NCBI RefSeq assembly: GCF_037042905.1
Contig: NC_087245.1
Location: 33,482,001-33,546,000 of the forward strand
Source: Lytechinus pictus
Taxonomy: Eukaryota
DNA: 64,000 nucleotides
Reading direction: 5' to 3'
Every line of letters starts with the position of its first letter. The first letter of the stretch is position 1. A model generated the notes under the pieces. That model saw only the letters and a program-made list of their open reading frames with translations, was not told where the DNA came from and did no database searches. Positions 3,571 through 57,601 of this stretch are shown here, piece by piece. The position numbers and the translations under genes were made by a program.

Positions 3571-4080
3571 CCGGGGGGGGGGGGGGGGGGGGTACTCGAC
3601 CAAAAAAGTGGTAGGTACATGTATGTGCCGCGGACGAGACAAAAAACGGGGGCCTTGGAGCGGGCTTATTGTAAAAAGGAGGGTCCTCAGAACAGGTTTC
3701 GAAACTACAAATGTTTGTGAAAACGGAGGTCCTTGGAACGGGTCGCCTGCGTGTGAGTGCGTTTGCATCCCTATGGAACAGGCATATACGTGCATGCAGC
3801 TAGCCCGGTGGCACGGGCGCAGGGTGCGCTCGCGCAGAGGCGATTGTCGGACAGCACTCTGCGGCCGCTTTTCCACTAAAATTGCAGCTCAGTGTAGCAG
3901 ATCAATGCGGCCGGCACGGCGTAACGTAAAATATGCTATGCTTTGGAGCGGCTTTCTTTGTTCTTTTTCTCAATAAGACAATAATGCTACGCCTTGGTAC
4001 GGAAATTTGAGTGTAAAAATGGGGGTCCCCTCCACGGCACATGTACCCATTACGCATTATATACTGAGTTGCCCCCTGGG
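3571..4080. mobile_element. Non-autonomous DNA transposon with poly-G/poly-C TIRs
   Basis: Ends CCGGGG...GTACTC / GAGTTGCCCCCTGGG; 8-bp TSD AGTCTATA/AGTCCATA (1 mismatch). Confidence 0.7.
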
Positions 4081-4470
4081 AGTCCATATCAAAATTATGT
4101 TACCTGTGACACTTCTACCAATGTAGGTTTTGAGAAAAGTCTAGCGTATACAGTTTGCTTCTTGTCAACACAGTTCCATTCAGCCCTTGGTACTGGTAAG
4201 CTTAGTATTAAGGATGCCTTTCTGTTTTGACTATAATACTGCTCGCATATTGCCAACAGGCTACAAGCTCACTTAAATCCATTGAACCATTTGAAACTTG
4301 TCTTCCAATGTTTTATTACAGAGAATGTTTGATAACAAAGGCAAATTGTAGCCAAATAAGTTATGAGTAAGTTTTCAGACAAAGTTCAGATAAATTACAA
4401 AGTACAATGTAATCTTTGTTTTCCTTTTCTTTGGAACAGATTTTCTAGTTTGATTCACCTTCTGTGCGTA

Positions 4471-4645
4471 ATGGGGAATAAACATTCATGTGGCTGCATT
4501 CAAAGCTGTCACAAGAATCCAACCAGGCGGGCCCACAGGGCTCCTTCTCAAGAAATAGAACGATACGAGCCGACACCTGAAGAAGTAAATGTGGACGAAA
4601 GATCAAATCTCCAGCATATTGGTGACAGAGAGACTGGCATAGAAG
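4471..4645 (+). CDS. CCNY: CCNY coding exon 1
   Basis: MGNKHSCGC...[13 protein letters not shown]; donor G|GTAAAC at 4646, phase 1. Confidence 0.92.
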
Positions 4646-7600
4646 GTAAACAAGCAACTTGTTTAAATTATAAAAATATAATCCCATACATGTAACTGAA
4701 CACCATTTATACTCTGAATAAACGGTCAAGGCCAATAAATTAATGCAGTTCGACTTAAACAACAAACTGATTTGATGAATAAAAAAATACCATCGTTGGA
4801 ATGAGCAGTGGAATAAAGAGCCCAAACTTTTGAGGGGCACAGCATGCTGTATACATGTAAATGTAAAAACAAATTGCAGGTGAGTGGAGAAGGGGGGAAA
4901 TATTTTGGCATTTTTAAAATGACATGTTTTTGTGAATGTACAAATAATATCAAAGCTCCCCCCCATAGAACTGCCTCCCAATTTGCTCCTCGAGGCCGGA
5001 TTCAAACTCAAAATAGCAAGATGTTGCCTTGACTCTTGACTAGGGACAGGGATTTTCCTTTTCTAAAAATTGCCCTTTCCATTTCAGAAAATCTTAAATT
5101 CTGTTTCAGCATTTCTGAAAACGGAAATTCCGTTTCCGTATCTATAGACTTTGTGTGCAGGAAATTGTGACAATTCCGTTTACATATAAAATCAATGCGC
5201 AATGAGTAGCGATGTCAAAAATGCTCGTGCTGGTCAAAATTTGTATTTCCCACTGTACTAACAATGCTTTAAAATCATTTTTAATTGAAGAGATTCGAGC
5301 ACAAAAATGATTTAAAGAAACAAACATGTAATTAACATGAATGCATCCTCACCTTTGACATTATTAGCATTATTTTATGGTTAAATGAGATTTTATCGCT
5401 GATTTGGGGACTTTTTGGACATCGTTTTGAGCATTCAACGACTTTGGCCTATCCGCCATTTTGGATTTGTTGAATACCGCGATCATGATACTTTGACCGA
5501 ATGCAGAGGGCAGCAACGCACGGCCGTGTTTCTGCTTATACATGTATGCGGACGTGAGTGTTAACTGATTTTTATACGATCTAGTGATGGAGGGGCTGAG
5601 TACAGTCATGATGTGTGGATTGTCATGATTGTTTTAGCGAAGTGAAATCATGTTTCTTTCCAGTTGATATTCATATTTCGTTGAGGATTTGGGAGTAAAT
5701 TTTTGTTGCTATTCTGTGCATTTTGAGAAAAAATATGTTTTCCGTGATTTTCAGTTTGAAAAGCCACTTTCCGTCTCAAGAGGCAGATTCTGTGAAATCC
5801 GTCCGTTTTCAGCTATCGCGGAAAATCACTCTCCCTACTTGACCTCAAACATCTAAAACATCCTTGGCCCTGTCCTTTATATCATTATCCTTAAAACAGT
5901 CTGGCTCTTGCCTTTTTGCACATCACTGTGTCGTTCACACACTTTCTATAAAAATGATATTTTTAAGGGCAAAGGCACTTTTCTACACATGTAGGCAGCA
6001 GGCCTTTTTATTTTGAATATTTTTTTTTTTGGGGGGGGGGGGTGGGAGGGAAGTGCAAGTCCACTCTTCTTTGGAGCATGTCTCTATCTTACAGCACAAT
6101 TATGTGAAAAAATGAAACGGTACATAACTGTCCAATGCCATAGCCTTTAATAGTGGTCTCTGAATTATTTGAGCCAGGTAGGGCATGTATCTGTATCAGT
6201 GTTGAAATTACTTTTTATTTTTAAGGGAGACGGGACGGGCGCGGACGGGAGTGATCTTCATGGTGGGAGTCGCTCGGTACTTGGCAGTTTTGAAAATCTT
6301 TCTAAATTAAGTTTGTTTTCATCACCTTTCATATCCCAGCTCATTTTCCACTGGTTGTTCAATAAAATATACAGCATCTAGGCGAAATAGGCGTTCTTGT
6401 AAAAATCAAACAATATGAGCACAATGAACACACAGAAGATATGTAGTGAGTGAATTGAATGTTTTGAACAATGATACTACATGTAAATGCCACTTTATTT
6501 TAATGGAGCTATAGTTTTGTTTCAACAAATGGGATGGATTTTGTATAAAGATATGGGATGATGTGCAAATATATGTATCTCAAATCTTGTACATGTATAC
6601 TTGAACACGTACTGTACAATTAAAGTTGGTAAAAAATTGTGTATACAGTACATGTACTTGTAGCAATATCACATTCTTTATAATAACATCTTGCTCTAGG
6701 ATGCTTTTTTACTCATTGTATTATGGAATGAATAAGTTCTATACATTGAATATTTTCATTTCCTCATACATTTTATTGTGCAGTACAGTTCAGTTGAATG
6801 ATTGATCTCATATTGGTTTCAGTTCAAATACAAAACACTAAACAAACACGGTCAGAACAAATCAAAAGATGTACTACAGTGCACATGTACTTGCCATCAA
6901 TGTGTTGAACAAAGTATATTGAACTGTTAACAGATTGATCAGCTGTGTCCCCGGGGGGGGGGGGGGGGGGGGGCCACTTCCATTCACGAGTGGATACCAT
7001 GCGCGACCATGAGATCTCAAAAAGCACCCTAAACACGTATTTTCCATATTCTGAAAATGCACCCCTTAACAAGTATTGGCGTGTAAAACCCTACCCTTAA
7101 CAAGTATTGGCGTGTAAAACCCTACCCCTAACAAGTATTGGAAACAAAACGATAGTATTGGCAAGTATTCCCTGAATTGTACCCCTAAACAAGTACAGCG
7201 ATATTTCAAACACGGGTCACGTCGGTCGTCGGTTTTACCTAAAAATTACCTACATCATTGGGTTTAGTACAGTCCAACCCGCGCAAATCGTGGGGCAAAA
7301 AGTACATCCTTTATAAAACATTTAGTCTTGATTGGCCCTCACAAATTTGACCCTAAACACGTAAATTTCCTAGCGAAATAGATACCCTTTTTTCATTATT
7401 TTTGTGTTTTTGACACCCTTATTACGTTACGTATGTAACGTGCCCTATCTTGAAAAAGACATCCTTTTTACATGTTTTTTTGGTCGCCCATGGTATCCAC
7501 TCGTCAATGTAAGTGGCCCCCCCGGGGCTGTGTCACATTAGTAGACCTACACGTAGGCCCTACCTTTATATTTTATGCAGATTTAAAAGGTAATCATTTA

Positions 7601-9179
7601 TTTGATTGATTGATTTACTTTATTATTATTATTGTTTATTTAGTTATTTACTTATTTATTTATTTATTCATTTATGTTATTTTATCAATTAATGATTATT
7701 ATTATTATTATTTTTTTTTGGGGGGGCTCACTGCCATTTATGTTATTCGTGATTGATTGATGTTATAAATTCTATTGACAGTTTTACATGAACACTCACA
7801 TTTATTAGCAACTCATAGAACTACATTTACTTTAATACAAAATTGTGCTGCATTGTGAATACATGTACGACACATTTTTTTCACAAATATTTCAAAGGAT
7901 ATTTGTGATATCGATGCACTTTAAGGGCCACCATAGAAACATGCTCAAGGCAATGAATTAGCCTCTTCGATCAGCATGACCTCAGCCTATCTAGATAATT
8001 AGCAAGGAAGCAAGATGCTTGTCTTGAGGAGGATATGTTTCATCATGTCATTGGTATTTTAGGAATGTTTGTAGAGGAATAGAGCTGTCACAGAGCACGC
8101 AAAAGTGTGCCCTTCACCTGCAGGTATTGAACTTATCCGACAGGTATACACTGTGTATTAAAACAAACTCAATGTACCGTAGGTCTACTTTGAAAGCAAT
8201 GGCGCATATGATGAGCAATATATTTTTTGTTATTGTGAGTGTAAACAGAACATATACAATGTATACAAATGTATCCTTGTTTATAAAATTATGTCATATC
8301 TCAGTTGAACTTGAAAAGAAAAATTATAAGCCTACAATATGAGCAAGTGTATTTGAGAAAATATACTTTTTACCACCCCCCCCTCCCCCCCCCCCCCCCC
8401 CCGACGAGAAAAGATTTTGATGGCTAATGAATCAACACTCAATGAGACAATGTACACCCACATGTTCATGTTCATGTACAAAATTTGTGTATACTGTACA
8501 TGAGTTCATATCTGTACATGTGTTAATGCACATTAATGTGTTCATGTATGAGTACATACATATCACAACATACAGTCACCCGCAGAATGAAACTCTTTTC
8601 TTTATTTTGTATGTATTTATTCCAGTGAACTGTCTATGAATTTTATTACATAACCTGTCATAGTCTTCCTGATACATTCATACATGTGTAACATGGGATT
8701 CATGGGGTTTTGTAACAATTTTTGGCATGATCCATGGGGGGACATTGCAATTTAAAGCTACACTTGATACTGGTTAGTTTCTGCTAATGAAAAAGGAAAT
8801 CGAAGTGCACTGTAAGTATTAAAAAAACTGTTGACAACCAAATGGCCGTACAATATTTAAGGTATCTAAACCCTATAAAGTTAGGTAATTGTGTTCATTG
8901 CTTGCCAATCAGTGAATGGTTGGCAATTAAGTTCGGTAAATCTTGTTGGAATGCTCTCCAAGGAATGACTGGTGTGGGCAATCCAGGATAGACCAGGCTT
9001 AAGCACTTTAGAGACATCTTTCAAATGTTTTGAGAGCTGTATAAAAGTGGATGATGATGTTGATTGTTTTTATTATTATTATATTACTATTATTACTACT
9101 ACTACTACTACTGTACATGTACTATTACTACTACTACTAATACTACTACTAATACTACTACTACTAACTACTACTACTG

Positions 9180-9231
<52 letters not shown>

Positions 9232-9267
9232 ATGTACTACTACTAACTACTACTACTACTACTGCTG

Positions 9268-9327
<60 letters not shown>

Positions 9328-12300
9328 TACTACTACTATTATTATTATTATTAATATTATCATTATTTGCTGAAAATTGTTTAAGTTTCTATGACAACCG
9401 AGAAACCCATATATGTAATCAGGTTCTGCTTTTCCCCCCAATAACTTTTTATGTAAACTACATGTACATCAGAAGAAAGAAAATAATGGAACTACATGTA
9501 TATTTATACCAAGAATAATTTTTCAATGCATCACTATTAATGGTCTGTCCTTCTTTCATGAGCAAAAAAACAAAAAAAAAAAAATGAATGAATGAAAAAT
9601 AAACACCCAAGATCCCTGAATCTGCTTTCACATGCAAAGTCACCTAATTTCACTACCAATCTTCCATCAATATATTTTCTATTATCATTCATGTTAAAAT
9701 GAAAATGTTAAAATTAATAATAATAATAATAATAATAATAGCCAATTTTTATAAAGCGCTTTTCCCAGAATCGCTCAAAGCCATTTAGCAATGAATGAAA
9801 CCTTTGATTGTTACGACGTTGATGAATAGATGGTGATACCCTATCCTGAATGGGATATGATAAACATCGATGTAATCCATTTTAATTTATGTGATGAAAT
9901 AATATATCATGTTTTCTGTTTTTCCTCCCTATCCAGAGGATATATTGGATCCATCAGTACACCCAAGGACTAGTACCATTTTCCTCACAAAGGCAGAATC
10001 ATTAGGTATGAACTGGATTTCAATCTGTAATACAATTTTATTGAATAAACCCTTTTTTTTACTTTGGTTTTGTTTTCTCCAGAAATACTGTGTGAGTCCA
10101 AAAAAAATTTAACACCTCACAAATCCCCAATTTTAGGAAAAGTATTTCTTGAACACATTATTATTTTATATGGCCTGGGGTGTGTTAACGCTTGTGCCAA
10201 ATTAAGGCATGGCTGCAAGGAATGGATCCAGAAAACTACACTACATGATCTGTTGTTATGATGTGATTGTTTAACAAATCACATTTTGCATTAAATGTAC
10301 ATGTAAAGTTCAAAGATGTACCCTATTTCATTTCAAGTTCGGCATAATGCTAGATAGGAATTTTTATTGTTGCATGCGTGTGGTTTGAGAAAGGCTTCAA
10401 GTTGCAGGCGATGATGACATTACAAAATGGAATTGCGTGTGCTTTTATACCTACATTGATGCTTGAAATAGACTGGAATTTCAATATTCATGCCACTTAA
10501 ACTTTGATCATGAGCACTATATAGGTTGGGATGTTCATATCAAATACTATTTAATTATCTGTGAAAATCCGGTCGCAACAGATTATGAAGTGAGCTCAGG
10601 GCTTTAATAGGGAATACTTTCAATTTTAAGTTTGTTTCTGATTTGATGTGTTTCTTGACATATTGCAGATATTGTACAGGATAGGAGAAATCATCACAGT
10701 GACAACAGGCTGAGTAGTACATTGAGTAAGAAGTTCAGTTCATGTTCGACTATCTTTCTAGATGACAGCACAGTATCACAACCAAATCTTAAGTCAACGA
10801 TACGATGGTGAGAACTGTAAACTAAAGCATTTCTGATGATTGACTACTCTGGGTTTAAATTTCAGTCCTGGCAAGCATAAGATGTGGATTCTGTGCAATC
10901 TCAGGAATACTCCACAAAGTAGGCCAGAAAAAGTGGTGTCAAAGTAATTCAAGTATCTCCAGTTTTTTTTTTCTACCTTAGACCTTCAAAGTTTGTCATT
11001 GGAAATTGTGATCTTATTTTTCATATAGTGCTCCTGGGCCATGGGAGAAATGGTGCATGATTTGTCAAAGATATTTTATTTCACAATCTCTATTCATGTC
11101 TTTTATATGTACATGTACATGTAGCTGTACAGACCACTCAAACATATTATGGTAAACTAGGTTTTTTGTTGTAAAAAACATCCTTATTTTATTTATGTAT
11201 CTGGTATTGATTTTCTCATTGAATTTCAGTGTGGCATTGGCAATATACTACCATATAAAGAACAGAGATAGTAGCAGACAAATGGACATCTTTGATGAAA
11301 AGCAGTACCCACTCTCAGTAAGTATGCACTCAAATTGAGGTATTTGTTGTTTCTCCTCTTTCTTCTTATATTTTGTAAAGTCGTCATGGTGCTATAAATA
11401 AAGCTACCAGTGCTTATCTGTTGAAATTTAAAGGCAGATCAGGCAGATTTAGCCTACATGTAGTTATCCAAGATTGAAAAGGTACTCGTGTGAGTCTACC
11501 TTGATTGTTTTCAGTCTACATAACTTAGGTTTCCTGCCCAAATATCTTCAAAAATTAAAATACTTGGTAGGAGGCTAATTACATGCAAGATAGACTGATC
11601 AAGAACAAGCTAGACTTATCAAGATCGTGGTAGACTGGCAAATATCAAACTAGACTAATCAAGATTATTAAAGCTAGACTGATCAGGACCCAGCTATACT
11701 GATCAGGATCTAGCTGGACTGATCAAGATCAAGCTAGACTGATGAGGATATACCTAGACCTATCTGGGGAGTGTTTCATCAACATTTTTATCCGACAAGT
11801 TGTCAGATCTGACATCTTTCTCTGATGTTGATTGGCTGAGAGGTACGGTTACTATGGTAACTGTCGGATAAAATGGGACTTGTCGGATAAAACGTCTGAC
11901 AATTCCTTTCATGAAACGCCCCCCAGGACCCAGCTATACTGATCAGGATCTAGTTAGACTGATCAGGACCCAGCTATACTGATCAGGATCTAGTTAGACT
12001 GATCAGGACCCAGCTACACTGATCAGGATCTAGCTGGACTGATCAAAATCAAGCTAGACTGATGAGGATATACCTAGACTGATCAGGACCCAGCTATACT
12101 GATCAGGATCTAGCTGGACTGATCAAGAACAAGCTGGACTGATCAGGACCCAGCTATACTGATCAGCATCTAGCTAGACTGATCAGGATCTAGCTAGACT
12201 GATCAGGACCCAGCTACACTGATCAGGATCTAGCTGGACTGATCAAGATCAAGCTAGACTGATGAAGATATAGCTAGACTGATCAGGACCCAGCTATACT

Positions 12301-15300
12301 GATCAGGATTTAGCTGGACTGATCAAGAACAAGCTAGACTGATTGACAAATTGGAGAAGGAGGATGAAGGAGTAGGAGGAGGGATAGGAAGAGGAGGAGG
12401 AGGAAGAAGAAGAGGAGGCAGAGGGGAGGTTAACAAGAAAGAGAGGACAGGAGGGGGCGCAGGAAAGAAGTGGAAAAAAAGAGAGGAAGAGTTAGAAACA
12501 AAAGGGCAGTGTTGTGTCCAAGGCCGGCTTGTCAGAGGCCAAGGCCGGATCACCTGAGTTCAAGGCCAAGGCTGGATTGCCAGAGGTCAAAGACAAGGCC
12601 AAGGCTGACTCACCCAAGGCCAAGGCCGGAAGGGACGAGGCCAGACCAAGGCCGAATATTCCAATACAAGGCCGGCTGAGGCTGGAGAGCCAGGAAAAGG
12701 CCAGCCATGGCCAAATATTGTGATATTATTCGGTGGCAACGGCCACAGATTTCATAGGGACCCTAAATACCTGATCTTTGCCCAGTGATGCTCTTTGTTT
12801 TGGTTATGTATTGTTTTTCCACACCTCCATTAAAAAACATACACAGATGCTCATGTACACACTGGTATACATTATATACATGTACATATACAGTACACTC
12901 TTATAGTCCATACACACACACACCCACTCATACATAACCACTTACCCAATTAACCATATTATTAACCCTTTGAGGACGACTAGATTTTTTAAAATTTTGC
13001 CTCAGGTTTTTGGATTGTTATAAAATCAAATTGTCTCAGAGTCTACAGACAATTTTATTTCAAGACAGTCCAAAAGCCTGAGGCAAAGTCAAAGTTAGTT
13101 TGATGAAAAGTGGAATTCATTTTAAAATATTGTTGAATAATGTTGAACGTAAATTTCATAATGAGAATACTAAGAGATTGACATAATGGCGCACGCGCAT
13201 TGTAAAGTCGAGTCTCCATCACGTCATTGTCAGTGCAGCATGCATGCATTGGCTTTGACATTAAGAACAAAATAGAAAGGCTAAAGAAAGTAAGAGAGAA
13301 GAGCGTACTCATACAGGTGAATGGGCATGCTCGACAGTCGACTCTCTCCCCTTCTCTAGTTAAATAATATTTTAGACAAACTTACAACATATGGCATTTG
13401 CACACCCTAAAATTCTCCCGGCCTTGACCCGAGGATTGCGTCCGAGGCCGAGAATTAACCTCCGTCCTCGAGGACAAGTCCGAGGACGATTTTGCGGCCT
13501 TGAGGCCGGCCTCGAGACCCACAACACTGTAAAAGGGGGATGGGGAAGATCGAAGAGCTGTAACTGCAAGAAAAAAGGTTCTATGGATATCAAATATCTT
13601 CTGCATTAGATTTGGTTGGATTTCATTAAAACGTATGTTTATTGAATACCTCCAGTACACAACTAGTTAATCAACCAGTGACACAACATTTGCTCCCGCA
13701 ACAATTACTCCGGGCTTTAATTCTGTCAAAGATCTGGGGTTAGTGTTGCGATATGGTTCTACAGGGTATGTTAGGTTTAGGCTAGGGTATAGCCTTAAAC
13801 CTAGGGTTGAAGTTTGTCATTTGATTAGTGTGTGGAATTTAGAGCAGAGGAATTGTCGCAGGAGGAAATGTCATGGAAGCAATCAAACCTCCAATACATA
13901 GTTGTACTTGTCAGCTATTCATTCTCTTTCAAATCACTGTGAGCTGCATGTACAGAAATGTTTTGATTTTCATTTCCTTGTAATAAGATATTCTATTTTT
14001 AAGCGGACTTTCCATTAGCCCACGATTTATTGATTAATGGATTTTAATTTCTTTTGCTGCTACTGCAAATGGCTTTTCGTATGCATTAATAAATCTTTGT
14101 TATGAAGAAAGTAATTGAAACCATCACTGACATTTTCCTTTTTCTCAATTCATTATCAATAAGGTAGCATTTTTAAGTTATTCAAATGCTCTGTTAAAAG
14201 ATCATTTAAATGAAGACTTGTCTGCTTTTCCTTTCGTACCTTTGCCTTCATGTCATCTGATATCCTGTCCAATTGACATTATTATGCATATATTTGGGGA
14301 AATGTGTTTTTCTTTTTAAGTATTGAAAAATTCTGTGGTAATTTGCATTAAAAAATGAAATACTGTAATATGCAACTTATGATTCCACAGTGGATATGTT
14401 CACACAAATTAATCCTAAAATGTGCATGGACTATTCACTCATATATCCATGATTTGTTGATCCACTTTTTATTATCTTTTTTATTTAGTCTTTGGAATTT
14501 CAGAGATTTTGATTGCTCTTGCTTTTTTATTTCATTTAAATACATGTACATGTATTGATATTATCTTTAATTACTTTTTAGTGACATTCCAATATTAAAA
14601 AAGTAAATAGATAACTAGCTATTTCATAGATATTGTGTTCTTACTTTCCAGTTCAGCCTACAAACATCTCACCTTGTTTACTATTTTCTTGACAGCATGA
14701 CAATTTGAAAATGGTCTGATGTATAAGAAAAATACTCCTTGTACTGTATATTGCATTTTCGTTGCTGATATATATATATATATATATTTTTTTTTTGCAG
14801 AAAATTCCAGTACCAGATGATTATGACAAACACAATCCTGAACACAGACATATCTACAAGTTTATTCGCATGTTATTCAATGCAGCTCAGCTCACAGCAG
14901 AATGTGCAATAGTTACATTAGTAAGTATGAATGAAGAGCGACTTCTAATCAACTGATCTTCAAAATAAGTGAAAGGGGGCAGTGGTCTTAAGGGTAAATT
15001 GCCAATTCGTCTACTGCCAACTCATCCACTCACCACATGGTCTACTTCCATTTTAATAGTCTAATGCCATTTGGTCCATTAACCATTTGGTCCAGTCATC
15101 ACTTCGTCTAATTACCATTTCGTCCCATAACCAGTTGGTCTGATATCCATTTCATTCCGTTGTCAATCGTCAAATCATGTGCTGGAGCTTGTAGTGGAAG
15201 TAGTGAGATGATCATTTAGCATGATATCATTGAACTGATTTGGAAGGGTCAAAATGTTTTGCCACCGCGACAAGAATCGGCCGTAAACTTAGTGTATATC

Positions 15301-18300
15301 GGGTGGTCGGTTTCAAAAGAAGGGTGCAAATGAGCGAATGTAAAATCATCGCATTCCTTGTTTGCCGATATATACGCAAATAGAATCGGAGTCGTCGATC
15401 GAAACATGGGAATCTGATCTAATTTTCTGCACAAATGAGACAAAAACTAGGTAAAACTGATAAATATTTTGGCAAATACGATGCTTCGAACATTAGGTGG
15501 TCGATACGGGGTAGTTCCAACCATACTGTAGGCTTCACCAAGGGATCAAGCAAACAAAAAAAGATTTTTCATTTTCAGGGGCTACTTTTCACAACCTACT
15601 GCCTAAATCTGCAACATTGAATAAGCTTACTACTTTAACATTGAGAGAATGAAAAAAGGGGGCATAATTGCCATTGTGATTTTTTTCCTGCCTGGGATAA
15701 TCTTGCAAAGCTGTTGATTATGATTACTTTCCTGTTTGATATTACATCATTATCATTTTTAATAATGGAGCCTTTGATGTTATTCTTATTTTTATCTGCA
15801 GGTGTATTTAGAGAGATTATTAACATATGCTGAAATTAACATTACGCCTAGCAACTGGAAACGAATGGTCCTTGGTGCTATCCTATTAGCTTCCAAAGTA
15901 TGGGACGACCAAGCAGTCTGGAATGTAGACTACTGTCAGATTCTAAGAGAACTAACAGTAGAAGATATGTGAGTATCAATTATTATATTCCGCATACTAA
16001 GAATCTTGTTATTGGATTGGTCAGAAGTCGGTCATGTGATAAAGGGAAGTTTCCCCCATCAATCATCACTCGCAGTGATGGAACTTTTGTGTTTCGCTGA
16101 TCTTTTTCAGGCCATAGGGTCATAACGTGTTATGAATTAGTTTAAGTATGCGTGAAATGAAGCTATGGAATCCATTGCCACTCGATTTTTTATTGTCCAT
16201 CATTCTCCATCACCTGCAGTGATGATTGCGCAAGATCTAGATGCATGCCTGCAGTGTACATACGCGCTAGCTGTAAAACTTTGCGCAAAGTAAAAGTGCA
16301 TTGCCCCTCGATTGTTTTTTGTGACGGTAAAATGCCTTTGTCAGGTCACAATAAATCTTGCTTGAGCAAGATCACAGATGCATGGGCACAGTTTACATAT
16401 GCGCTAGCATTAAAACAAGCATAATCGTCTGAATGTATTTTTTCTTTCAAAGGAAACCTTGATTTTTTTTCAAACAAATTTCTTCTTTATAGAGATATCG
16501 GTTTCATCGTGGTTCTCGATGCAGGATATAAAGCATATAATCTCCTCTTGATTTCAGGTGACGAGGCACACTATCAATTCCTCGGCAAGCTGGATGTAAC
16601 CGCTATCTTTTCTCGGCTTCGCTTCGGAAAGATAGCTATATCCAGTTTGCCTCGAAAGTGATAGTTTGCCCATCACCTTCACCAACAGTGATTATTTGCT
16701 TTTTATTCATTTAGGTTCATGATTCAAGATTCAAGATTCAAGATTTATTAAAACATATGATCGCAGCTTGTTAAGCTGAATTGACAAATGTTTTACAAAA
16801 GAGCATAGAAATATACATAAAATCAACAAAAAGTAATGTTACAAAAGAGTCATGAAATTACAAAAACAATTGCGGTATAATCATGATAATAATGAAGTGA
16901 TCTTAGTTTTGGAAAGCTTTGAAAAAAGTACATATGTTGGAAAAAAATTCACTAAATATAAAATTATTGTGATGTAATATGGGTTTAAAGAAGAATTGAA
17001 AGAAAATTTGTTATAACGGCTTTAAGTAGATTCAGTATTGACAATTGAAAATGAGAAAAGAGCATCAAAAATTACTGTCTAATGGGAGAGTAACTTAAGG
17101 AAAGTAAGAGAAATAAAATCGGGAGAAATCAAGAACAAATTACCACACAATTATGCTAGATTAATGAGACTGTAAACTAATAAGAAACATTTTCAATATG
17201 CATGTACAGGAAATAATGGATACAATGATTGCCATGGTAATTAAAAGTGTAAAAAATAATTTAAGAACAAAATATATACACCTGTACCACCAGTCAGCCA
17301 CTTCTAACTCACCACTACACCACAAACAGAAAACAACAGACTCGGTCCACCCGGGGTCCACTGCTCTCATGTACTATAATGTGCAAACGACTTTCACTAG
17401 AGCATGTGTAGATCACTTTTTTCATTGAAAATACTGAAGTACAATTTTTTCTTTGAAAGAATCAAATTTTTGAAAGAAAAGGAAAAATTAAACATATTCA
17501 TGGATCCAATAATATCAAGGGAGACCCATCACGAAGGGTAAGAACATTAGGCAAGAGTTACTTGCCTGCTTTTGTCCTTACGGTAATGTGAATTGATATA
17601 CAGTAAAATCTGTACTTCTCCCATGCAAAATCATCTATTCAGTGAATTAAACCCAAACATGAATGGATAGTATCTGAATTAACCTATTAAAGCGGTTTTT
17701 AATTTTCTTTCAGGAATGAATTAGAGCGTCAGTTCCTAGAACTTCTCCAATTCAACATCAATGTGTCAGCCAGTGTATATGCTAAGTACTACTTTGACCT
17801 CCGAGAACTTGCAGACACCCACGAACTTGCCTTCCCACTTGAACCACTCAGTACAGAACGAGCCCAGAAACTAGAGGTAAGAAACACGTTATTATGAATA
17901 GTACAAAAAAGTTGTTAAAGCTCATCAGATGAATGTTCAGTATGACACCATGTGCATGTAACTGTCCATTCCTTCCGTACCTCGTGTCCGTTCTAATAAA
18001 GTGGCATGCCTGAGTCTGACGTTGCCCATCAAAATGTGTTCCCCTCCTTTCTTAGCATCAGCCTGTGATGTCAGTGGGCTGTATGACAGTAGCATCACTA
18101 AGCCAAGAGAGGAATGTCGAGCGCTGCCATCCACATGCCTTCTTTCCTTCTATAGCACCAGTAAGGGCCACTGTCTCTCAAGCATTCTTACGGAGAATGT
18201 GGCCCAAGAAGCGTATCTTTCGAGTTTTTTTAAATTTTATTTTAAACAAGTGCGCACCAAGTTACCAATAATGCATATAGCATTTCCATTTATTTGAAAG

Positions 18301-21300
18301 CAGGATGAAAGAGCAATGTACAATAAATGCTTTGCTCACAGGCATAGGTGCCACGGCCGGGGATCGAACCCCGGACTTTCTATGTATAGCCAGGCGCCTT
18401 AGACCATTCGGACACGGCACCTCCTCCGGTATCTTTCGAGTTGCTATATTACGTAGTAAAGAACAGGATGATATGGCCTCTTCAAGGACATCTACATTGC
18501 TGACATGATCAGTCCAGGAAAATTTGGTCATTCTGCGCAAAAATCACATTTCAACAGCTTCCAAGCATTGTTGCATGGTGTTGTTAAGAGTCCAATATTC
18601 ACATCCATACCTCATGTACTAGGAACAAAACATAAAACATTCTTAAATTAGGTAACCAGGGGCCTTAGGTATCGTGCCCCCTATTTTGCTTGCCTTTTAA
18701 CAGACTGACCCACAGAATCCCGCCTAGTTTTACATTTTGGTTCAAAATTGATGTGCTGATTGATACTTATTTTCAGCACTTTACTATTTTTGAAATAAAG
18801 TACTAGCGAATGGTTCGGTTGATGTTGTAAGCATAGGGCACTTGTGCGAGACCTACCCATGATTTCCATTTAGGTCAGAACTTCCCTATTATACCCCCCC
18901 CCCTCTGTTATGGTAAATAAACATTTTTTATAGTCGTCATGTGGTGTTGCTGTGATACCTGTGTGCATCTCTCTGATGTGTATACATATGAATACAAACA
19001 TGCATGCATGCATGGCATTTGATATGCATGCAGCAGCTGTGTTGTTTAATAGAACATTGCACATTGAAAGGCCTTTTGTGCATCTTTTAATTGTACTCTT
19101 AGACTTATTACAGGGCTTGTTATTGGACTTGTCTCCAACTTCATATTGATTTTAGTTGACCTATTTTTCGGATCAAATGATTCATACACAAAATGCTTAA
19201 TACAAGTACGGTATAAAGGATTGAATTATTCTTAGATGAAGAAAACTTGGAATGCTCGTGTTTTTAATTCAAGAAAATATATATTGGTGGACAGTAGAGG
19301 GAGTCAACATCATTGTAAAATGGTATTGATTATGATATCCATTGCAGCATATTGCATACCAGCATATTGCGCTTCTGTTACTTATGTTTTGTATTTCAGT
19401 TTTTTATTAAGTCACCCAGACTTTTATTACATTACAAAATCTAAATGGAGTACAATTTGGCAAGATATCTATTTATAAAGAGTGTCTTCAGAATTTGTCT
19501 TCATTGCTTATTTTAAGGATTCAACCTCACAATTTGATTCAATATTCTAGTCATTTCATTTGTGTTGCATGAACTTCGTGACCCGAATGTTGTTCATTTA
19601 TACATGGAAGCAGAAATACATGTATGTTTGGTTTGAAAATAAGGCTTTAGGGGCTTCATGTACATATGGTTATTTTTGCTTGTATTGTACCCCAGATGTA
19701 AAAAAAAAAATATTTACTTGATACAATATGATAGAAATATACCAATATACAGTAAGCCCTCTCATAGTCATGTTTTTATATTTATTTGAAAATAACCCTA
19801 TGTAGAAACATATAAGAATTAAATCATAAAATTTTCATCCCATTCCATGGTTGATAATGTTTCTTTTTTTTAAATAAACAATACAAAATATGCAGATATG
19901 TCATTTTGATTTTGTAAAATAAGTATTTATCTAATAAGATACATATCCTCCTCATAATAAGGCACACATGATCGTAGTCTAGTAATGAAATGAAAAGGTG
20001 ACATGCACTATGGGGAGATTTACCAACGCTATAGATAGACTTAACGGCTACATAGAATGACAAAGTTTTAAATTGGTTTATATGAAATTCATTGTTTGTT
20101 AAAAGGAAAAGGCAATTTTTATGAAATGTAACAATCACTTCCAAAATAGCAATGATGTTGATGTCTATGAACCACAACATTACAGTGGTTGTAAAAAAAA
20201 ATGGATCCAAGTGTATATAGTGTTCAAAACAAAATTTTGCGAAAACACATATAAATAGGACATTGATTATCTCTGGAAATTAAAACATTTATTGTACTGT
20301 AATTCAGATTGGTTTTGGTTTCTAATACTTTTGCAGTTGATTATATCATCCATTTACAAACTCCTGTTTCGGTTTCCAATACATGTAGGACTGTGTTTAT
20401 TCCGTCATGTGATCATAATCATTAATATGAGTTGAATAGATCTATTCTTAATATAAGGTTTCGTATCTATTGATCAAGATGTTGTACTACAGAAATGATG
20501 AATTACTCAGCACTCTGGTTGAAACTAAAAAAAAAATAAATGTAATGGTTTATTATGGCTATGGCATTGCTTGACCTTTTTTTTTTAAAAATAAAGTGTC
20601 TCCTCTCATGTCTCAGAGCAATGAGAGCATGTTATGTTGCTATGTGCATGTGCAGTGGTACAGACATACCTTGATATATGAATGAATGAATTTATTTATT
20701 ATCCAATGCAATGATAATTACAAGTTTACAGCCAATCAGTTATGAATACATAGAAAAGCAAGGATAATACAATGAAGGAACCAGAAAATAGCATGAATGC
20801 TAGTCAAGTCTGGTCCCTTCTAGTTTAGATAGAAAGAAACATGTTTCTTAACTTGTTACTTAAGAATGAACACTCGTAAGTCTACTAAATATACTCTGTA
20901 ATATATAAACAATGACTACATAACAATTTAACAAAAACTAACAGTATACATGTGCTGTAGTATGTTGATTGAAAAAAAAGAAATCAGTATAGTGTATATT
21001 TGCCTTGTTATCTTGTGATGCATGGCTTGTTTGTTGCAGTTTACTTATCTGCATGTTATGTACCATACATTGAAAAAAAGAAATTCTTCCAGCTGAATGT
21101 TTAAAGGAGTTTTAAAACCAAAGGCAAGAAAAAATGTATGAGAATTTTGTTACTCTTAAAGGGGAATGAAACCCTTGGAAGAAGTGGGCTTGTGTGGAAA
21201 GAGAAAAAAATCAAAGAATAAGATCAAAGAAATTGGAGAAAATTTGACAAATAATGAGAAAGTTATGGGCATTTGAATATTGCGATCACTTATGCTATGG

Positions 21301-22555
21301 AGATCCTCCTATTGGCAATGCGAACAACTTTCCCTTTGATGGACTATAAAATACCCCCGAAATGTCTCTTTTTGCTCTTTTGGTCTTTTACAAACTCTTT
21401 GAAAATGTGTATTACAAGCTCTCCTATAGAAATGATTTATGATCTACTGATAGATGTGATAAAAGAGGCATTTTAAGTGAAATATATACAAAGCAATGGG
21501 AAAGTTGTTCACATGTGATATCACACATCTTTGTCGCATTGCCAATAGGAGGATCTACATTACAATAATGATCTAAACTTCAAATGCTGATAACTTTCTT
21601 ATTATTCATTCAATTTTTCTAAAACTTTCGTTGATCTGTTTCTTTCACACAAGCTACATGCATCTTGCTCCAAAGGTTTCATTTTCCTTTAAAGCTTTGT
21701 GAAACGTCCCCTGGAAACACTCAACCATTACAATTCACTATTGAACGGTCTATTGTGAAATTCATTGAGTGCTTCCAGGGGATGTTTCACAAAGTTTTAA
21801 GTGTGACTTACAGTCGTACTAGTAGATTCCCAGTTGCATAGTATATGTACAGTACCAGTCACAGTTCTCTGACTCACGTGTATCTGTTATTGTTTGCACA
21901 GACCGGTCAAACCGGGTATCGCGTTGTATATTAACACTTCAATGCATTGTTCAGATCATGCTAAAAGGGCATGCACTACTGCGTATTAATTAATAAGATT
22001 GCGTGTTAAATATCATGTGCTCGTAGACATACCGGTAAGCATTCAAGTATAACTGTAAGTCACACTAATTCACACTTTAATCTTTGTGAAACATCCCTAG
22101 GTCTGTCAAGGAATATTGGCAGCATTCAAGGCATTTGTTTATATAGTGATACATGTATGTACTTGTATGCGAATAATCATATTTTTTTCCACCAAAGTTG
22201 AATGCTATTCAGAATAGACTAACAACGAAACAATGTCCATGTTGGTCATAGGTGGGACGCTTCCAAACTAGAAGAAAAGAATGTACAGTTTATTGGGCAA
22301 TGAATCAGATGTGTCACTTTGTCAGTGCAAATACATGTATTGTCATGTTATAAAGTTCCTGAAGGCCCAAAAAAGAAATTACATGTAACCTTGAAAACAG
22401 CACACAAACCAGCTTGGTCTGTTCTCCAACAGGTATTCTCTAAACCAACAGAGGACAAACCCAGAGACGTTCCATCCCACACCAGTGTAAAGAGATCACG
22501 GAGTGCCGACAGTATCCAAGTAGTGCCTCGATTCTCAAACGCCATAATCTCGTGA
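4471..22555 (+). CDS. CCNY: Cyclin Y, 347 aa; join(4471..4645,9937..10005,10669..10807,11230..11317,14801..14920,15802..15968,17714..17876,22433..22555)
   Basis: All introns are GT-AG with consistent phases, and the CDS is 1044 nt. Hallmark CCNY motifs are present: MGNKHSCGC (G2 myristoylation), [28 protein letters not shown], cyclin box [21 protein letters not shown]...[30 protein letters not shown], and C-terminal KRSRSAD...AIIS. Confidence 0.97.
5041..5837. mobile_element. hAT-like MITE
   Basis: TIR TAGGGACAGGGATTTTCC / GGAAAATCACTCTCCCTA; direct repeat CTTGAC on both flanks. Confidence 0.65.
6950..7526. mobile_element. Non-autonomous DNA transposon with poly-G/poly-C TIRs
   Basis: TIR CCCGGG(G)nGCCACTT / AAGTGGCCCCCCCGGG; perfect 8-bp TSD GCTGTGTC; internal 31-bp tandem repeat at about 7063-7141. 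Confidence 0.8.
9065..9368. repeat. (TAC)n/(TAT)n microsatellite
   Basis: Read directly from the sequence. Confidence 0.95.
9937..10005 (+). CDS. CCNY: CCNY coding exon 2
   Basis: [23 protein letters not shown]; ccag acceptor and GTATG donor. Confidence 0.92.
   Translation, partial: RIYWIHQYTQGLVPFSSQRQNH
10669..10807 (+). CDS. CCNY: CCNY coding exon 3
   Basis: DIVQDRR...[31 protein letters not shown] donor. Confidence 0.93.
11230..11317 (+). CDS. CCNY: CCNY coding exon 4
   Basis: [36 protein letters not shown] donor. Confidence 0.95.
11590..12343. repeat. 20-bp minisatellite (consensus about GACTGATCAGGATCTAGCTA)
   Basis: About 30 variant units with a recurring higher-order order of variants; interrupted by a MITE. 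Confidence 0.92.
11764..11926. mobile_element. MITE with CWG-flanked ends, inserted in the minisatellite
   Basis: TIR CTGGGGAGTGTTTCAT / ATGAAACGCCCCCCAG. Confidence 0.75.
12507..13529. mobile_element. hAT-like non-autonomous element with GGCCAAGGCC/GAGGCC subterminal repeats
   Basis: TIR CAGTGTTGTG / CACAACACTG; 8-bp TSD CAAAAGGG/TAAAAGGG. Confidence 0.72.
14801..14920 (+). CDS. CCNY: CCNY coding exon 5
   Basis: [46 protein letters not shown] donor. Confidence 0.96.
15802..15968 (+). CDS. CCNY: CCNY coding exon 6
   Basis: [61 protein letters not shown] donor. Confidence 0.96.
16721..17400 (-). mobile_element. LINE 3' remnant (CR1/L2-like); extent approximate
   Basis: Minus-strand AATAAA followed by a (TCTTGAA)n tail at 16721-16749. 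Confidence 0.45.
17714..17876 (+). CDS. CCNY: CCNY coding exon 7
   Basis: [60 protein letters not shown] donor. Confidence 0.96.
18150..18424 (-). mobile_element. tRNA-derived SINE; 3' end approximate
   Basis: The minus strand reads GGAGGTGCCGTGTCCGAATGG (A box)...GGGGTTCGATCCCC (B box), followed by a CCTGTGAGCAAAGCATTTA core. Confidence 0.75.
18430..18640 (-). mobile_element. RTE-type LINE C-terminal fragment
   Basis: The translation [21 protein letters not shown] resembles the RTE ORF C-terminal motif. Confidence 0.5.
21160..21688. mobile_element. TTAA-TSD MITE (Kolobok-like)
   Basis: TTAA|AGGGGAATGAAACC ... GGTTTCATTTTCCT|TTAA; paralogous to 52727-53310. Confidence 0.8.
21776..22100. 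mobile_element. MITE with CWG-type ends
   Basis: TIR GGGATGTTTCACAAAG / CTTTGTGAAACATCCC. Confidence 0.7.
22433..22555 (+). CDS. CCNY: CCNY coding exon 8 (last)
   Basis: [40 protein letters not shown]; matches the CCNY C-terminus. Confidence 0.93.
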   Translation, partial: VFSKPTEDKPRDVPSHTSVKRSRSADSIQVVPRFSNAIIS

Positions 22556-23002
22556 TGAAGGCTCGTGTCTTGCGGAGTCTGTCATCGTGTGTTGGGGGTG
22601 CCATCTCATGATCAGTTCGGTCATCGTGCGATGAGTGACATCATTATGCTGCGTTCAGCAGAAGCGGTGGAGCCTGTATCCAGTGGAAAGCGCCCTCTGT
22701 CGAGTACAGCCATCAGGTACCCTGGGTCACATAGGGTAGAACACTGCTTACATTACAGTCCCAGCTCATCGTGATAGGTGATGTCATGTGATGAATGTCC
22801 TGTTATTTATGAACCAACCAAAGCCAAATCTGTTATGAATGCTTTACGGTAGCTCAGATTGGTAGGAAACTCAGAGAATATACGTGTAGTTTTGAAAAAA
22901 AAAACAAGGGACCAAAGATTTCCCTCCTGCTTTATACTCTTCAAATCAGGGCCTTGCTTTTATGAAAATATGGCTTGGAATCTGAACTTCATGCTAACTT
23001 AA

Positions 23003-23926
23003 GGATGTTCCACAGTTAAAGTGAAATCCATGTCATTTTCGCCAAACTTTGCACATAGATACTTTAGAACCTTAATATTCGAAATATGCAAAAATTAACA
23101 TAGGTCCATGTGCTTGATTTTTTGCTATAGAGCTTCAAAGTTCACCCAAATTGATGTTGTTAAGAATCGCGCATTCAAAAGAATTTGGCATTTTTAGACC
23201 TCGCAAGATTACTACAATGAGTTTAAACCTCTATTACTCAGTCAAAATACATGAAAAAGTCATCAAATTTCGCAAGAGAGTTAATACTTGTATCGTTAGA
23301 ATGGAGAATCTATTTATAGTGCTATTTGTTTGCAGTTTTAAGTCTAACAGCACTGTCAGTTCTTAAAATGGCGTAAAAGTTAACAAAAACCCAATCTAAA
23401 CAAATGTGAAATTTCAATAACATACTACAAAAGTACAATAAATGCTGCACTTTATTCAAAATCCATGTCATTTTCACCAAAATTTGCAAAGTTGTAGAGG
23501 AAGGTATACCTAAGAGGTACAAACATTAAAAAATGGGGGTTCATGTGCTTGTTTTTAAACTATCAGCATTTTTATTAGAGCAAATGTGCTTTTTAAAACA
23601 CAAAAAATGTGCCGAACGCTTTTTATCTATGTGAAGAAAAAATCAAAACCACTCTACCATTTATTCAAACTCGGGGACTTATTCGTGATTCTTGGCAGCA
23701 CTGCAGAGTAAAGTATTTTGAAATTGTAGAGATGTTTTTTAAAATGGTCTATGGAATAATTCAATTTTTTAGCTTCATAAGATAATGCATCGGATCTGCA
23801 GATGATGAGAAAAATCAGCTCATATCCAGAGCTAATTAATCACCCGTTCATCCATTGTGACGTCAGCGCGCAGAGTGTAAACTATGCGCAGATCATAATG
23901 CGCACAAACATAACTGTGGAACGTCC
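23003..23926. mobile_element. TTAA-TSD non-autonomous element (Kolobok-like), downstream of the CCNY stop
   Basis: TTAA|GGATGTTCCACAGTTA ... TAACTGTGGAACGTCC|TTAA. Confidence 0.8.
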
Positions 23927-26906: not shown

Positions 26907-27172
26907 CACTGGCGGATCCAAGGGGGGGGGGGGGGGGGGCAAAGCCAGCCTTTGCCCCCTTTTGAGAGGCACAATTAGATTTTTTAGTGTAAAAATTATG
27001 TTACAATAGAAGTGCCCCCCTTTTGGAAGTGGTTCTTTTTTTCTTGCTTGTGAGACTTTTTTGTGGACGAAATGTCCATACTTTTTGGTTAAAACACTTT
27101 TTTTTGCTTGTCAAATTTTTCCTCGGGGGAAAGTGTGTCCCCCCCTTTTGGAAAATCCTGGATCTGCCCCTG
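26907..27172. mobile_element. hAT-like MITE
   Basis: TIR CACTGGCGGATCCA / TGGATCTGCCCCTG; perfect 8-bp TSD GTGAAGGA. Confidence 0.8.
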
Positions 27173-28498
27173 GTGAAGGATATGCTTTACATTCAATGTC
27201 CCATATTCTGAAGTCCAGTCTAAAATAGACCACAAACTAATAGATGCTAAAATTATGGGAAGCCAAAAAATAATTATATATATCTTATTTTTCCTTTTTT
27301 GTCTCCCCTTGCTTTCATAATGAAGGATATTTTGGTTATCATTCCCAGACAATCTTGAATGTTTTCAGCGTCAAATGATTTGATAAATTGAACATGTACT
27401 AATTACATGTAATATTTGTGCCAGAAAGTGGCTATCCATAGTTCAAACCAGAGTATGATTTTAACCAGAGTTTAGAATACTGTCCAAGGAGTTCAATATT
27501 TTTCTACAATTTTGCAGCAAAAGCATCAACAAAACCATATTTCTACACTGAACACGATTAATAATGAATGGCTTGTATACTATAGATGTAATTATTTTGA
27601 ATAGATACATTGGATTATTATGTGACTAAATGGCACTTGGTAGAGAGTTCCAAGGGGTTGGGTCACTGTTAATATTTTTGTGCACCTCAATATAATGTGA
27701 GTTCCAAGTATATCTTAGAGGATGAAAAAAGTAGAGGAAAGAAAGGTAATAGTTGTGTTCATTTGTTGGGAGAATATTCTTTTCCAGTTGTATTCACGCT
27801 TCCCATCAGCATTACTCTGAAATTTGGTTTGGTTTTGTTGAAGCAGTACTCATGTTTTTCTGTTGCAAAGTTTATAACAGCACACATGTACATACCATGT
27901 ACCTTTAATGTACATACCGTGTATCTTTAATATACATGTATTTATTTTCATTGTTAAACAAATCAACGATTGCTTGTAATTTTAATAATTTTTAGTTTCA
28001 TGGAAGATTACCAATTGACTGTAATTGTAATGAAATCACTAATACTAGTAGTTGATTTTATTTACAGGTCATGTTATTTTTTTAAATTTTTTTTTATCCC
28101 AATAGTAGAAACAGGGAGAGCATCATGTTTAAATAATATGTGTGTGAAATTGAGATTAAGAGGAGAAAGTTCTTGCCACAAGTTATCAATAATTGTTATG
28201 TTCAATTTTAGTTCTGTAAAAAGTCCATGTATTCACTTATTTGGAAATTATGTAGTAAATGGATAGTATCTTTTCTTCTGTAAGATCAATGGGAATTCTT
28301 CAGTATGCATGTACTGTACATGAAGCATCATTTTGTTATTATTTTGATTACAGGGTTTTATTTTTTTGTTGCTTTATGTTATTTATAAAGGTATTTATTT
28401 CTGAATATATTACAATATCAAATATACCATATAATGTGTGGTAGGCCAAATATATATGTTTTCCCCCTCATTCTCCCCCTTTACAGTGTATGTGTAAT

Positions 28499-29355
28499 TT
28501 TTGTCTCACCTGCACTGCAGAGTGAGAGTCTATACATGTAGGTGCCGCTTTTCCGACAGTGGCGATAGCGTCAACATCAAATCGTAAACAAAGGTTAAGT
28601 TTTTTAAATGACAGCATAACTTTATAGAAAGTATATGGACCTAGTTCATGAAACTTAAACATAAGGTTAATCAAGTATTACTGAACATCCTGCCCGAGGT
28701 TCAGGTCACATGACCAAGGTCAAACATCATTTAGGGTCAATGAACTTAGAACATGTTGGGGGAGTCAATATCGAAATCTTAACCCAAGGTTAAATTTTTG
28801 AAATGTCATCATAACTTTGAAAGTTTTGGACCTAGTTCATGAAACTTGGCCATGAGGGTAATCAAATATTACTGGACATACTGTGCGAGTTTCAAGTCAC
28901 ATGACCAAGGTCAAAGGTCCTTAGGGTCAATGAACTTTGGCCAAGTTGGGGGTATTTGTTGAATTACCATCATAACTTTGAAAGTTTATGGATCTGATTC
29001 ATAAACTTTGGGTATAAGAGTAATCAAGTATCAGTGAACGTCCTGTGCGAGTTTTAGGTCACATGACCAAGGTCAAAGGTCATTAAGGTCAATTAACTTT
29101 GGCCATGTTTATAGGTAATTATTAAATTTCTGTTATAACTTTCAAATTTTATGGAGTTTATGAATTGTGGACATAGGGGTAATCAAGTATCACTGACAAG
29201 TCTTAGGTCACATGATCAAGGTCAAATATCATTTAGGTTCAATGAATGGTATTTTTTGTGAATAATTATTTTATAGTAGTTTTCAAAGTCAGCACTGCTG
29301 CTATATTGAATCGCATAATGCAGGTGAGACTGCCAGAGGCGCTCCACTTGTTTTT
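28499..29355 (+). mobile_element. Helentron/DINE-like non-autonomous element with internal tandem units of about 160-180 bp
   Basis: T-run flanks, subterminal inverted repeat GTCTCACCTG/CAGGTGAGAC, and repeated GGTCACATGACCAAGGTCAAA units. An inverted paralog lies at 46511-47556. Confidence 0.7.
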
Positions 29356-37327: not shown

Positions 37328-38474
37328 CTAAGAATGTGAATATTTCTTTTGGCAAGATGTCATGGGAACATAAAGGACATTGTCAATCATCCTATCTGTG
37401 TCTGTCAAGTCAGTATTGCCATAGACCCTACTACGAATGGTATTGCCCTGTGAATTTGTATTGATTGGTGCATTGTGTGCAAGGTGGCCATCTCCCAAAT
37501 ATGGACCTTGGTTATCTTGCCCAAGGCTCCTTGGTAGTTCATATTTTTCGAGAGTATGGTAGAAAGGGGTCATATCTTGGCCCATCCCTTCTTTTTCTTG
37601 TTCATGTTTCTTGGGGATGTGGTGTAATCCTTTTGAATCTACTGAGAAAGCTCTGGGAAAATTATTGTTTTCTGGGTCGATATTACTGTCTCTCTGGTTC
37701 ACAAGAAAATGTTTTGGGCCTCGTGAGGATTTTCTAGGAGGCAGAGTTGGCCCTTCGTTGCAGTTAGCAGATGATGGTCTATGTGGCAAAGGGCGAAATT
37801 CCATAGATATTCCTCCAGAAAGCACTGCCTTTGACTGTTCCTGTTCATCAGATGTACCTTGATAATCATGATCAACCATATCCACAGCGGACGGTACTTG
37901 ATAGGCTCCTTCATAACTCGTTGCACTACCACTACCTATTTCCAGTGAGCTAGATATATAGTGGTATGAATTGACATTTTCCAGCATTATGTTTGTCTGT
38001 ACATCATCAGTTGTACCTTCGTATGCGTGATTATAAATCTCCACAGAAGTCGGTTCTTGGTAAGCGGCTTCCAACCTGACAGTATCATCTGACCTATAAT
38101 CAGAGCTAGATGCGTAGTAATGCGGAATTGGGGCACTGGGCGAGGACACATATTGATTATTGCTTCTTGGATAATTCTGATGAGGCAGACGAAATATGTG
38201 ACTTGACATATTATGTCGTGGAAAAGGTGGACCATGTGTATGTAAGGGTTGTTCAGGTGTATTCTCAGGTACTGCCAATGGTATCACAACTCTAGGTGTT
38301 GTTGAGTGGTTTGTGCTGGGATTGGGTGGTCTGTTGCTACTTCGCACTGCGTTGCTCCTGTTTGAATCATCTGTGTTTCTTGCTGAGACTGAAGGGGCTG
38401 CTGTTCCTGGATGGGTTGTGAGAGTTGAGTGTGTGATGTCTGTGTGTCCCTTGCTCTGCTGGAATCTCCATATC
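37328..38474 (-). CDS. Receptor last exon: disordered cytoplasmic tail of about 381 aa with many Tyr motifs
   Basis: atacag acceptor; long ORF containing YQEP, YQVP, YHTL, YELP and the C-terminal MIDNVLY (NxxY). Confidence 0.85.
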
Positions 38475-46141: not shown

Positions 46142-46172
<31 letters not shown>

Positions 46173-56699: not shown

Positions 56700-57601
56700 C
56701 TTAAAAAAATAAGTCCATAACAAAGGTGTAGGATCAAATAAAAAATATTAGAAATAAAAGGGGAAAGAAGACGAACATAACATATGCAATTTACTTATTT
56801 TTACAGTTCATTATACAATATCATTAGTATACGTAAATTTTGAATTTCTCTCGTGCATTCATATTTCATAAACGCACGGAGAAATTTGAAATCTATGGGT
56901 ACTCATATTATGGTATATTGAACTCCATAGCATGCACTCTATGTATAATATTATGTTATATTTTGGTGTAATTCTAAAAATATCAGCATGCGCTTGGCGC
57001 TCGTATTACATTTCTATGGTGAGATATGGATGCTCATGAATTCCTAAAAAATAGTTCTTAAACTGCCCATTTCTTCTGGTCTGAATATAAAAAAAATTCA
57101 GCTTACCCGTCGCGCTCACATCATTTGGTATACATAATGCTAAGTTCACACCAACGGCGAATGCCGCGCTTTAAATCGGCGATCAATTCGGCGTCATTTT
57201 TGTTTACTTTTCAAAAATTTCACGATCTCCTCAGATATGTTATGCTCTGATAAGCTCTGACACGCTCTAATACGAAGTTCGTTCCCGCTTTGGGCGACAA
57301 ATTATTTGCCGAATCGCTACGGCTTCTCACGCTTTGATGCCGATTGATCATGATTTATTACACTTTAAATCACGCTTTCATATGCTTTATTACTCTTTCA
57401 TAAGCTTTGATGCGCTTATCACGCTTTAAATGACGCTCTGATACGATTATCAAGCTCTCTTGTGCATTGATAGGCTCTGTTAAGCTCTGTTACGCAATGA
57501 CAAAATTCGAGATTCTAATTTCATCCCGCCTCTGATCCAGAGTATATATAAAGATGCAGCAGATACACGAAATCATTGCATCTTAGGCAGAAGAACAAGA
57601 T

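Follow-up and report, generated by a model that had tools for sequence, protein, structure and literature searches.

Abundant TACATGTA words across a cyclin-Y gene of Lytechinus pictus resemble excision footprints of Tc1/mariner transposons

Genes in the window

We analyzed a 64-kb stretch of the Lytechinus pictus genome (contig NC_087245.1, positions 33,482,001 to 33,546,000), which we call the window; coordinates are relative to its first letter. The left part contains a cyclin-Y gene with eight coding exons, which encode 347 amino acids, and all of its introns are GT-AG. Exon 6 matches the Cyclin family of Pfam and also Cyclin-Y in PDB (9r2i_D, E = 4e-28). Farther right is a receptor-like gene with SRCR, WSC, and Sushi exons and a tail exon that has no match in Pfam and that presumably belongs to the same gene.

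4471..22555, plus strand: cyclin-Y gene
4471-4645, 9937-10005, 10669-10807, 11230-11317, plus strand: cyclin-Y coding exons 1-4
14801-14920, 15802-15968, 17714-17876, 22433-22555, plus strand: cyclin-Y coding exons 5-8
37331..56700, minus strand: receptor-like gene
56428-56700 (SRCR), 55543-55830 (WSC), 54844-55125 (Sushi), minus strand: receptor exons
37331-38479, minus strand: receptor tail exon, 383 amino acids

Judging by eye, the stretch from about 2200 to about 2302 is likely the first, non-coding, exon of cyclin-Y, and a minus-strand gene at 1-1540 seems to lie head-to-head with cyclin-Y, with a coding-like exon at 1-237 and a donor-like site near 1535. At 32472-32520, AATAAA is followed by a GT-rich tract, which may be the poly(A) site of cyclin-Y; if so, the 3' UTR would be 10 kb long, and the region from 28.6 to 32.5 kb, which is free of the word discussed below, would lie inside the transcript. 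Intron 4 of cyclin-Y includes a 20-base minisatellite and then a GGA-rich tract (11586-12343). About 60 bases past the last exon of the receptor, at 37000-37270, there is a near-perfect palindrome of 271 bases (98% arms), whose center resembles two head-to-head pieces of a tRNA-derived SINE. In an RNA-labelled run (X21), depth was about 0 to 2 in single-copy bins and was high only over repeats. When runs were searched with 3500-13400, there was no RNA run among the matches listed, which had shares of at most 0.14.

An excess of TACATGTA on the cyclin-Y side

The 8-mer TACATGTA occurs exactly 32 times in the window: 29 times at 3616-28540, and then at 33647, 35154, and 50179. These counts and coordinates are the same as those that the initial annotation had obtained by eye.

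3616..28540, no strand: TACATGTA field, 29 exact words in 27 separate runs
11110/11116 and 14541/14547, within the field: tandem TACATGTA pairs

Dinucleotide shuffles of the window contained an average of 1.97 copies and a maximum of 7, and none of 100 shuffles reached 32. For 2.2-28.6 kb, Markov models of orders 1 to 4 predict 0.8 to 5.9 copies, as compared to the 29 observed, and no other 8-mer, aside from homopolymers, is as common in this region. Among palindromic words of the form NN-CATG-NN in the left region, the runner-up occurs 5 times and most occur 0 to 2 times; the 15 others sum to 13. Across the cyclin-Y gene, the excess over expectation is about 15-fold, and the adjoining receptor-like gene has nearly none (one copy, at 50179, in 37331..56700).

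Relative to TA sites, TACATGTA is present at 29 of 2,149 on the left versus 3 of 3,042 on the right (odds ratio 13.9, p = 8e-9), so the density is uneven across the window, as the initial annotation had proposed. Its statement that the words "saturate" the locus was too strong, since they occupy about 1.3% of the TA sites in the left region. A change-point scan gave p < 0.0005 by permutation (0 of 2,000, considering all cut points). No abrupt edge is evident: a cut at 28.75 kb (29 versus 3) fits about as well as one at 35.25 kb (31 versus 1). Whichever boundary is used, the density of TACATGTA on the cyclin-Y side exceeds that on the other side by a factor of 12 to 25, and the receptor side from 35.3 to 64 kb has just 1 copy. 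There is also a word-free gap of 5 kb within the cyclin-Y gene (14547-19617).

Within the field, 23 words are in the introns of the cyclin-Y coding region, 1 is upstream (3616), 5 are downstream of the stop codon, and none are in the 8 coding exons. The words do not cluster significantly (8 close pairs, p = 0.29), and two tandem pairs is about what we estimate, from the observed rates, for chance re-use of a TA. A contig of run X7 matches 21954-22374 without any difference, and this match spans the words at 22150 and 22332, which rules out assembly error for both. The excess of TACATGTA and its patchiness are real features of the window.

The left region is poorer in CpG (observed/expected of 0.47 versus 0.69 on the right), and the initial annotation had described the marked gene body as methylated. 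But across 2-kb bins, the density of TACATGTA was not significantly correlated with CpG observed/expected (rho = -0.29, p = 0.10). At a ratio of 0.34, the stretch 28.6-33.6 kb is free of words (p = 0.005, or 0.04 discounting repeats). The first 1,500 bases have a ratio of 0.17 and also no words. In 27 loci from other contigs, which are described below, rho was -0.16 (p = 0.43). These ratios suggest a weak link, if any, between TACATGTA density and methylation.

Insertions at TA sites

The initial annotation read the words as six-base insertions. Comparisons to empty sites cover the exact words at 28533 and 9229 (2 of 32) and the variant at 21655, and at these sites the reading holds.

28533..28540, no strand: TACATGTA in a dispersed repeat; the twin at 47516-47526 is 6 bases shorter at TA
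21655..21662, no strand: TACATGCA in a TTAA-type MITE, +6 at TA with one later change
9114..9236, no strand: two TACATGTA interrupting a (TAC)n array
46735..46744, no strand: TA-CATGCA-TA (+8 variant), carried by one unit of a 163-base tandem repeat

In the BLAST alignment of the twins at 28533, the extra CATGTA is present as claimed, and another indel, of 2 bases, lies immediately upstream; MAFFT places a single gap of 8 bases. The MITE at 21653 had been compared to its twin within the window (53281), and that alignment by itself is ambiguous, but copies in four public runs lack the six letters at 21656 (14, 14, and 5 contigs, and 168 of 310 reads). A competing two-letter gap was seen in 4, 11, and 1 contigs and in 17 of 235 reads. 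As for the two words said to interrupt the (TAC)n array, the one at 9229 breaks it by exactly CATGTA, a clean +6, while the one at 9114 reads TA-CTG-TA-CATG-TA and requires an extra TG. Thus, 28533, 21655, and 9229 each have a net insertion at TA, with the TA duplicated.

The alignment at 3616 is compatible with a 4-base duplication. The +8 variant at 46735 is missing from all six of the other aligned units; it sits in the word-poor half of the window and does not fit one simple cycle of insertion and excision. Neither 28533 nor the single-copy sites were among the 12 indels listed, out of 565. At 20769-20775, other copies of a repeat lack 7 letters, and the window reads TA-CAATG-AA, which is possibly a decayed seven-base scar.

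A target preference beyond TA

In the window and in other loci, the TA sites that bear TACATGTA have a palindromic preference beyond the TA itself. At the collapsed empty sites in the window, A at -3 or T at +3 was present at 29 of 56 half-sites, as compared to 33% of TA sites (p = 0.003) and 34% around other TA-N4-TA words. R-1/Y+1 was present at 38 of 56, as compared to 55% (p = 0.03). A-3/T+3 is common to the target motifs of Tc1 (CAYATATRTG), Tc3, Minos, and Sleeping Beauty, as given in Table 1 of PMC2577343.

For other organisms, we used contigs that were fetched for a triple TACATGTA, so their word densities are biased. Of these 119 loci, the flank tests relied on 27, chosen for a length of at least 1 kb, GC below 43.5%, and few TATATG/TACATA; the other 92 were short, GC-rich, or microsatellite-like, and in many of the fetched loci, TACATGTA sits in (TACATG/TATATG)n microsatellites. 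In the 27 loci, which are from unrelated marine contigs, T+3 was present at 73 of 145 sites, as compared to 31% (p = 1e-6), or at 45 of 96 if only dispersed sites are considered. With positions +4 to +6 at the background level, T+3 is not attributable to tandem copies that have decayed. Some of these contigs have many dispersed words: L025 has 17 (0.6 expected) and L047 has 9 (0.2 expected). L047 also contains a TA-flanked MITE with CAGTGGAACCTC (CAG...CTG) ends, at 308-495. Another word-rich contig, L026, from another organism, contains a short TA-flanked MITE with CA...TG ends (3738-3884). Among the 119 fetched loci, we found 13 clean indels of 4 to 8 bases and no clear CATGTA-at-TA scar outside microsatellite-like DNA. 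A 25-base repeat from the window had no matches in metagenome contigs.

Companion scars and decay

TA-CAG/CTG-TA adjoins TACATGTA at 3 of 60 half-sites in the window, versus 0.6% (p = 0.006, or 0.05 without the microsatellite), and at 4 of 158 in the other loci, versus 0.5%. In both sets, this is 5 to 8 times the background, with small counts. One-sided scars (TACATA/TATGTA) are 1.6-fold richer on the left (p = 0.05). Footprints of the Sleeping Beauty type read TACAGTA/TACTGTA, and these five-base scars are 1.9-fold richer on the left (p = 0.17).

Words with one mismatch to TACATGTA are also in excess at 2.2-28.6 kb (40 versus 15 to 23 expected) and not in the right region (32 versus 24 to 30). 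The mismatches are spread over most positions of the word, as in neutral decay. With 0.6 to 0.9 one-mismatch words for each exact word in excess, the implied mean decay is 7-10% per base. Also, the density of TACATGTA is higher where bins are single-copy (9 in 12) than where they are repeats (4 in 18; p = 0.03-0.06). Together with the one-mismatch excess being on the left only, this argues for slow accumulation and not for a single recent burst. The decayed copies, and the lack of a source element in the window, do not support the initial annotation's "very active" transposon, if present activity is meant. Over the 26 kb, some 45 scars would amount to about 1-2% of the point changes in the same time.

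Search for a source element

The 138 open reading frames of the window do not include a Tc1/mariner transposase: the only matches to proteins of mobile elements were to DDE_Tnp_4 (Harbinger type) and to LINE reverse transcriptase. Nor did we find a convincing TA-CA...TG-TA element in the cyclin-Y region, which makes for about 45 scars and 0 survivors. A relaxed search for element ends gave 25 matches, as compared to 2 to 13 in 10 simulated sequences. The best of these were rejected as source elements, as they are internal arms of other repeats. The CA/TG inner bases of TACATGTA fit Tc1-type ends, and the only such remnants in the window are two tiny ones of the form TA-CAGGG...CCCTG-TA, which are listed with a lone end; they hint at a TA-targeting family with CA...TG ends.

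63377..63428, no strand: TA-CAGGG...CCCTG-TA remnant, 52 bases
43635-43649: TA-CAGGG...CCCTG-TA remnant, 15 bases
59422: lone TACAGGG end

The window contains several other repeats. A TTAA-bounded palindromic element of 928 bases (22998-23925) is missing from a near-identical contig of run X7; its presence is thus polymorphic, a short way past the stop codon of cyclin-Y. A PIF/Harbinger-type element with terminal inverted repeats (57141-61010) has a broken DDE_Tnp_4 transposase at 57.8-58.9 kb. There is a foldback-like element of 2.7 kb at 40301-43040, with 246-base arms at 96% and internal repeats of 188 bases. Decayed minus-strand fragments of LINEs are at 33720-35016 and at 61500-63300, with a match to RVT_1 at 62256-62522.

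Origin of the words

The TACATGTA words are probably accumulated double-end excision footprints of Tc1/mariner transposons. The initial annotation had suggested Tc1-family footprints, and both the target-site signature and the published precedent from worms favor that suggestion. A Tc1/mariner-type DNA transposon with 5'-CA...TG-3' ends would duplicate the TA upon insertion. Excision would leave two-base 3' tails at the donor site, with CA on each side, and if end joining retained and filled both tails, the product would be TA-CA-TG-TA, six bases over the original site. Each word would represent one such insert-and-leave cycle. The scars would be neutral in introns and flanks, would be purged from coding exons, and would build up over a long time while decaying by point mutation. 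Most likely, the element would land, or would be excised and end-joined, more often in the chromatin of germline-active genes, which would account for the density in cyclin-Y. We infer a single origin for all of the TACATGTA sites, the identity of the element, and the reason for the patchiness.

The breaks made by Tc1 do have two-base, non-complementary 3' overhangs (PMC4490562). Among germline revertants of C. elegans, in an assay that selects in-frame products only, TA-CA-TG-TA (TACATGTA) accounted for 24 of 103, second only to clean excision (25); it accounted for 10 of 36 in lig-4, which lacks ligase IV, and for 3 of 39 in polq-1, which lacks polymerase theta (PMC4490562 and its supplement 4). 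With reference to Eide and Anderson 1988, PMC3520976 lists TACATGTA among Tc1 footprints and describes it as rare. According to PMC13148408, somatic empty sites arise by NHEJ, and homology-based repair dominates in the worm germline. The available portions of PMC2872659, PMC1636448, and PMC3276498 contain nothing on TACATGTA.

Among the alternatives, the one that we take most seriously, while still considering it unlikely, is that TA sites in active chromatin are attacked by a transposase, domesticated or of the Tc1/mariner type, and that the same cell reverses or aborts the reaction, so that a scar forms but no stable insertion allele does. This would account for 26 kb having about 45 scars and none of the elements themselves, as well as for the one dominant product, and the A-3/T+3 signature would be equally expected. 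However, ordinary excision of Tc1 already yields exactly TACATGTA, and survivors could be lost through selection or deletion. We know of no pathway that leaves such scars without a resident element. Slippage or short duplication of TA/CATG-rich sequence could be relevant to the two tandem pairs, to the microsatellites in many of the fetched loci, and to 3616. But the CATG inserted at 28533, 21655, and 9229 has no template at the empty site, most of the words stand alone, and slippage does not produce A-3/T+3, so we give it little chance of being the general origin.

The words might also be protein-binding sites that selection maintains across a housekeeping gene, for Myb, a homeodomain of the Irx type, or a BEN protein that recognizes CATG; this seems about as improbable as slippage. 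PMC3520976 gives TACATGTA as the site that Irx prefers and as a promoter motif abundant in Phytophthora, for which it rejects an origin as footprints, and a Myb protein has been linked to the word (PMC11134190). Against this, the words arise as insertions inside repeats and a microsatellite, the one-mismatch words show the pattern of neutral decay, there is no clustering, and just one word is near the promoter. Finally, deamination of methylated CpG could convert TACGCGTA or TACACGTA to TACATGTA in a methylated gene body, and the left region is indeed poorer in CpG. But the window contains no TACGCGTA and just two TACACGTA/TACGTGTA, and no other palindromic NN-CATG-NN word comes near the count of TACATGTA, so CpG decay fails as an explanation. 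Also, the sites that we compared are changes in length. We consider deamination, which the initial annotation had named as the competing origin, to be effectively ruled out.

Returning to excision footprints, they are usually encountered singly, in experiments. If some genes carry about one scar per kb and others do not, then past cut-and-paste activity is recorded that counts of elements would miss. Accumulated scars would mark where transposases act or how breaks in the germline are repaired, and they would be a reason for caution, as an abundant "motif" from motif discovery can be a mutational scar. A bolder idea, which we view as conceivable but rather doubtful, is that the germlines of marine invertebrates have a standing, domain-targeted transposase cycle that leaves TACATGTA in 1 to 2 of every 100 TA sites of germline-active genes and almost no elements. 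If so, indels would be arising by an unrecognized process, at roughly 1-2% of the rate of point mutation in those introns, germline chromatin would have left a fossil map in the density of TACATGTA that is legible from one assembly, and motif-1 of Phytophthora might share this origin.

Comparison with known systems

The scar itself is already known, while its scale and patchiness here are unusual. Outside of subscription papers and preprint supplements, we found no description of TACATGTA scars as a dense, regionally bounded feature of an animal genome. The closest system is Tc1 of C. elegans, whose footprint has the identical sequence, adds six bases at a TA, arises in the germline of the worm, and shares the target preference at -3/+3. 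However, the worm data describe a single selected site with 26 products, this being one of them, whereas the window has about 1 per kb over a whole gene, a 12- to 25-fold drop next door, and no element that we could find.

The footprints of Sleeping Beauty, ZB, and Frog Prince consist of 0 to 3 bases of the element's end plus TA (PMC7913693). Like the words in the window, they are TA-bounded scars of element ends, and TACAGTA/TACTGTA adjoin TACATGTA more often than expected by chance. But those elements leave three-base tails and add five bases, whereas in the window, +6 is dominant and +5 is barely enriched. Motif-1 of Phytophthora is the identical word and is highly abundant in its genome, but, as described in PMC3520976, it is a conserved promoter element, whereas in the window the word is intronic, inserted, and decaying.
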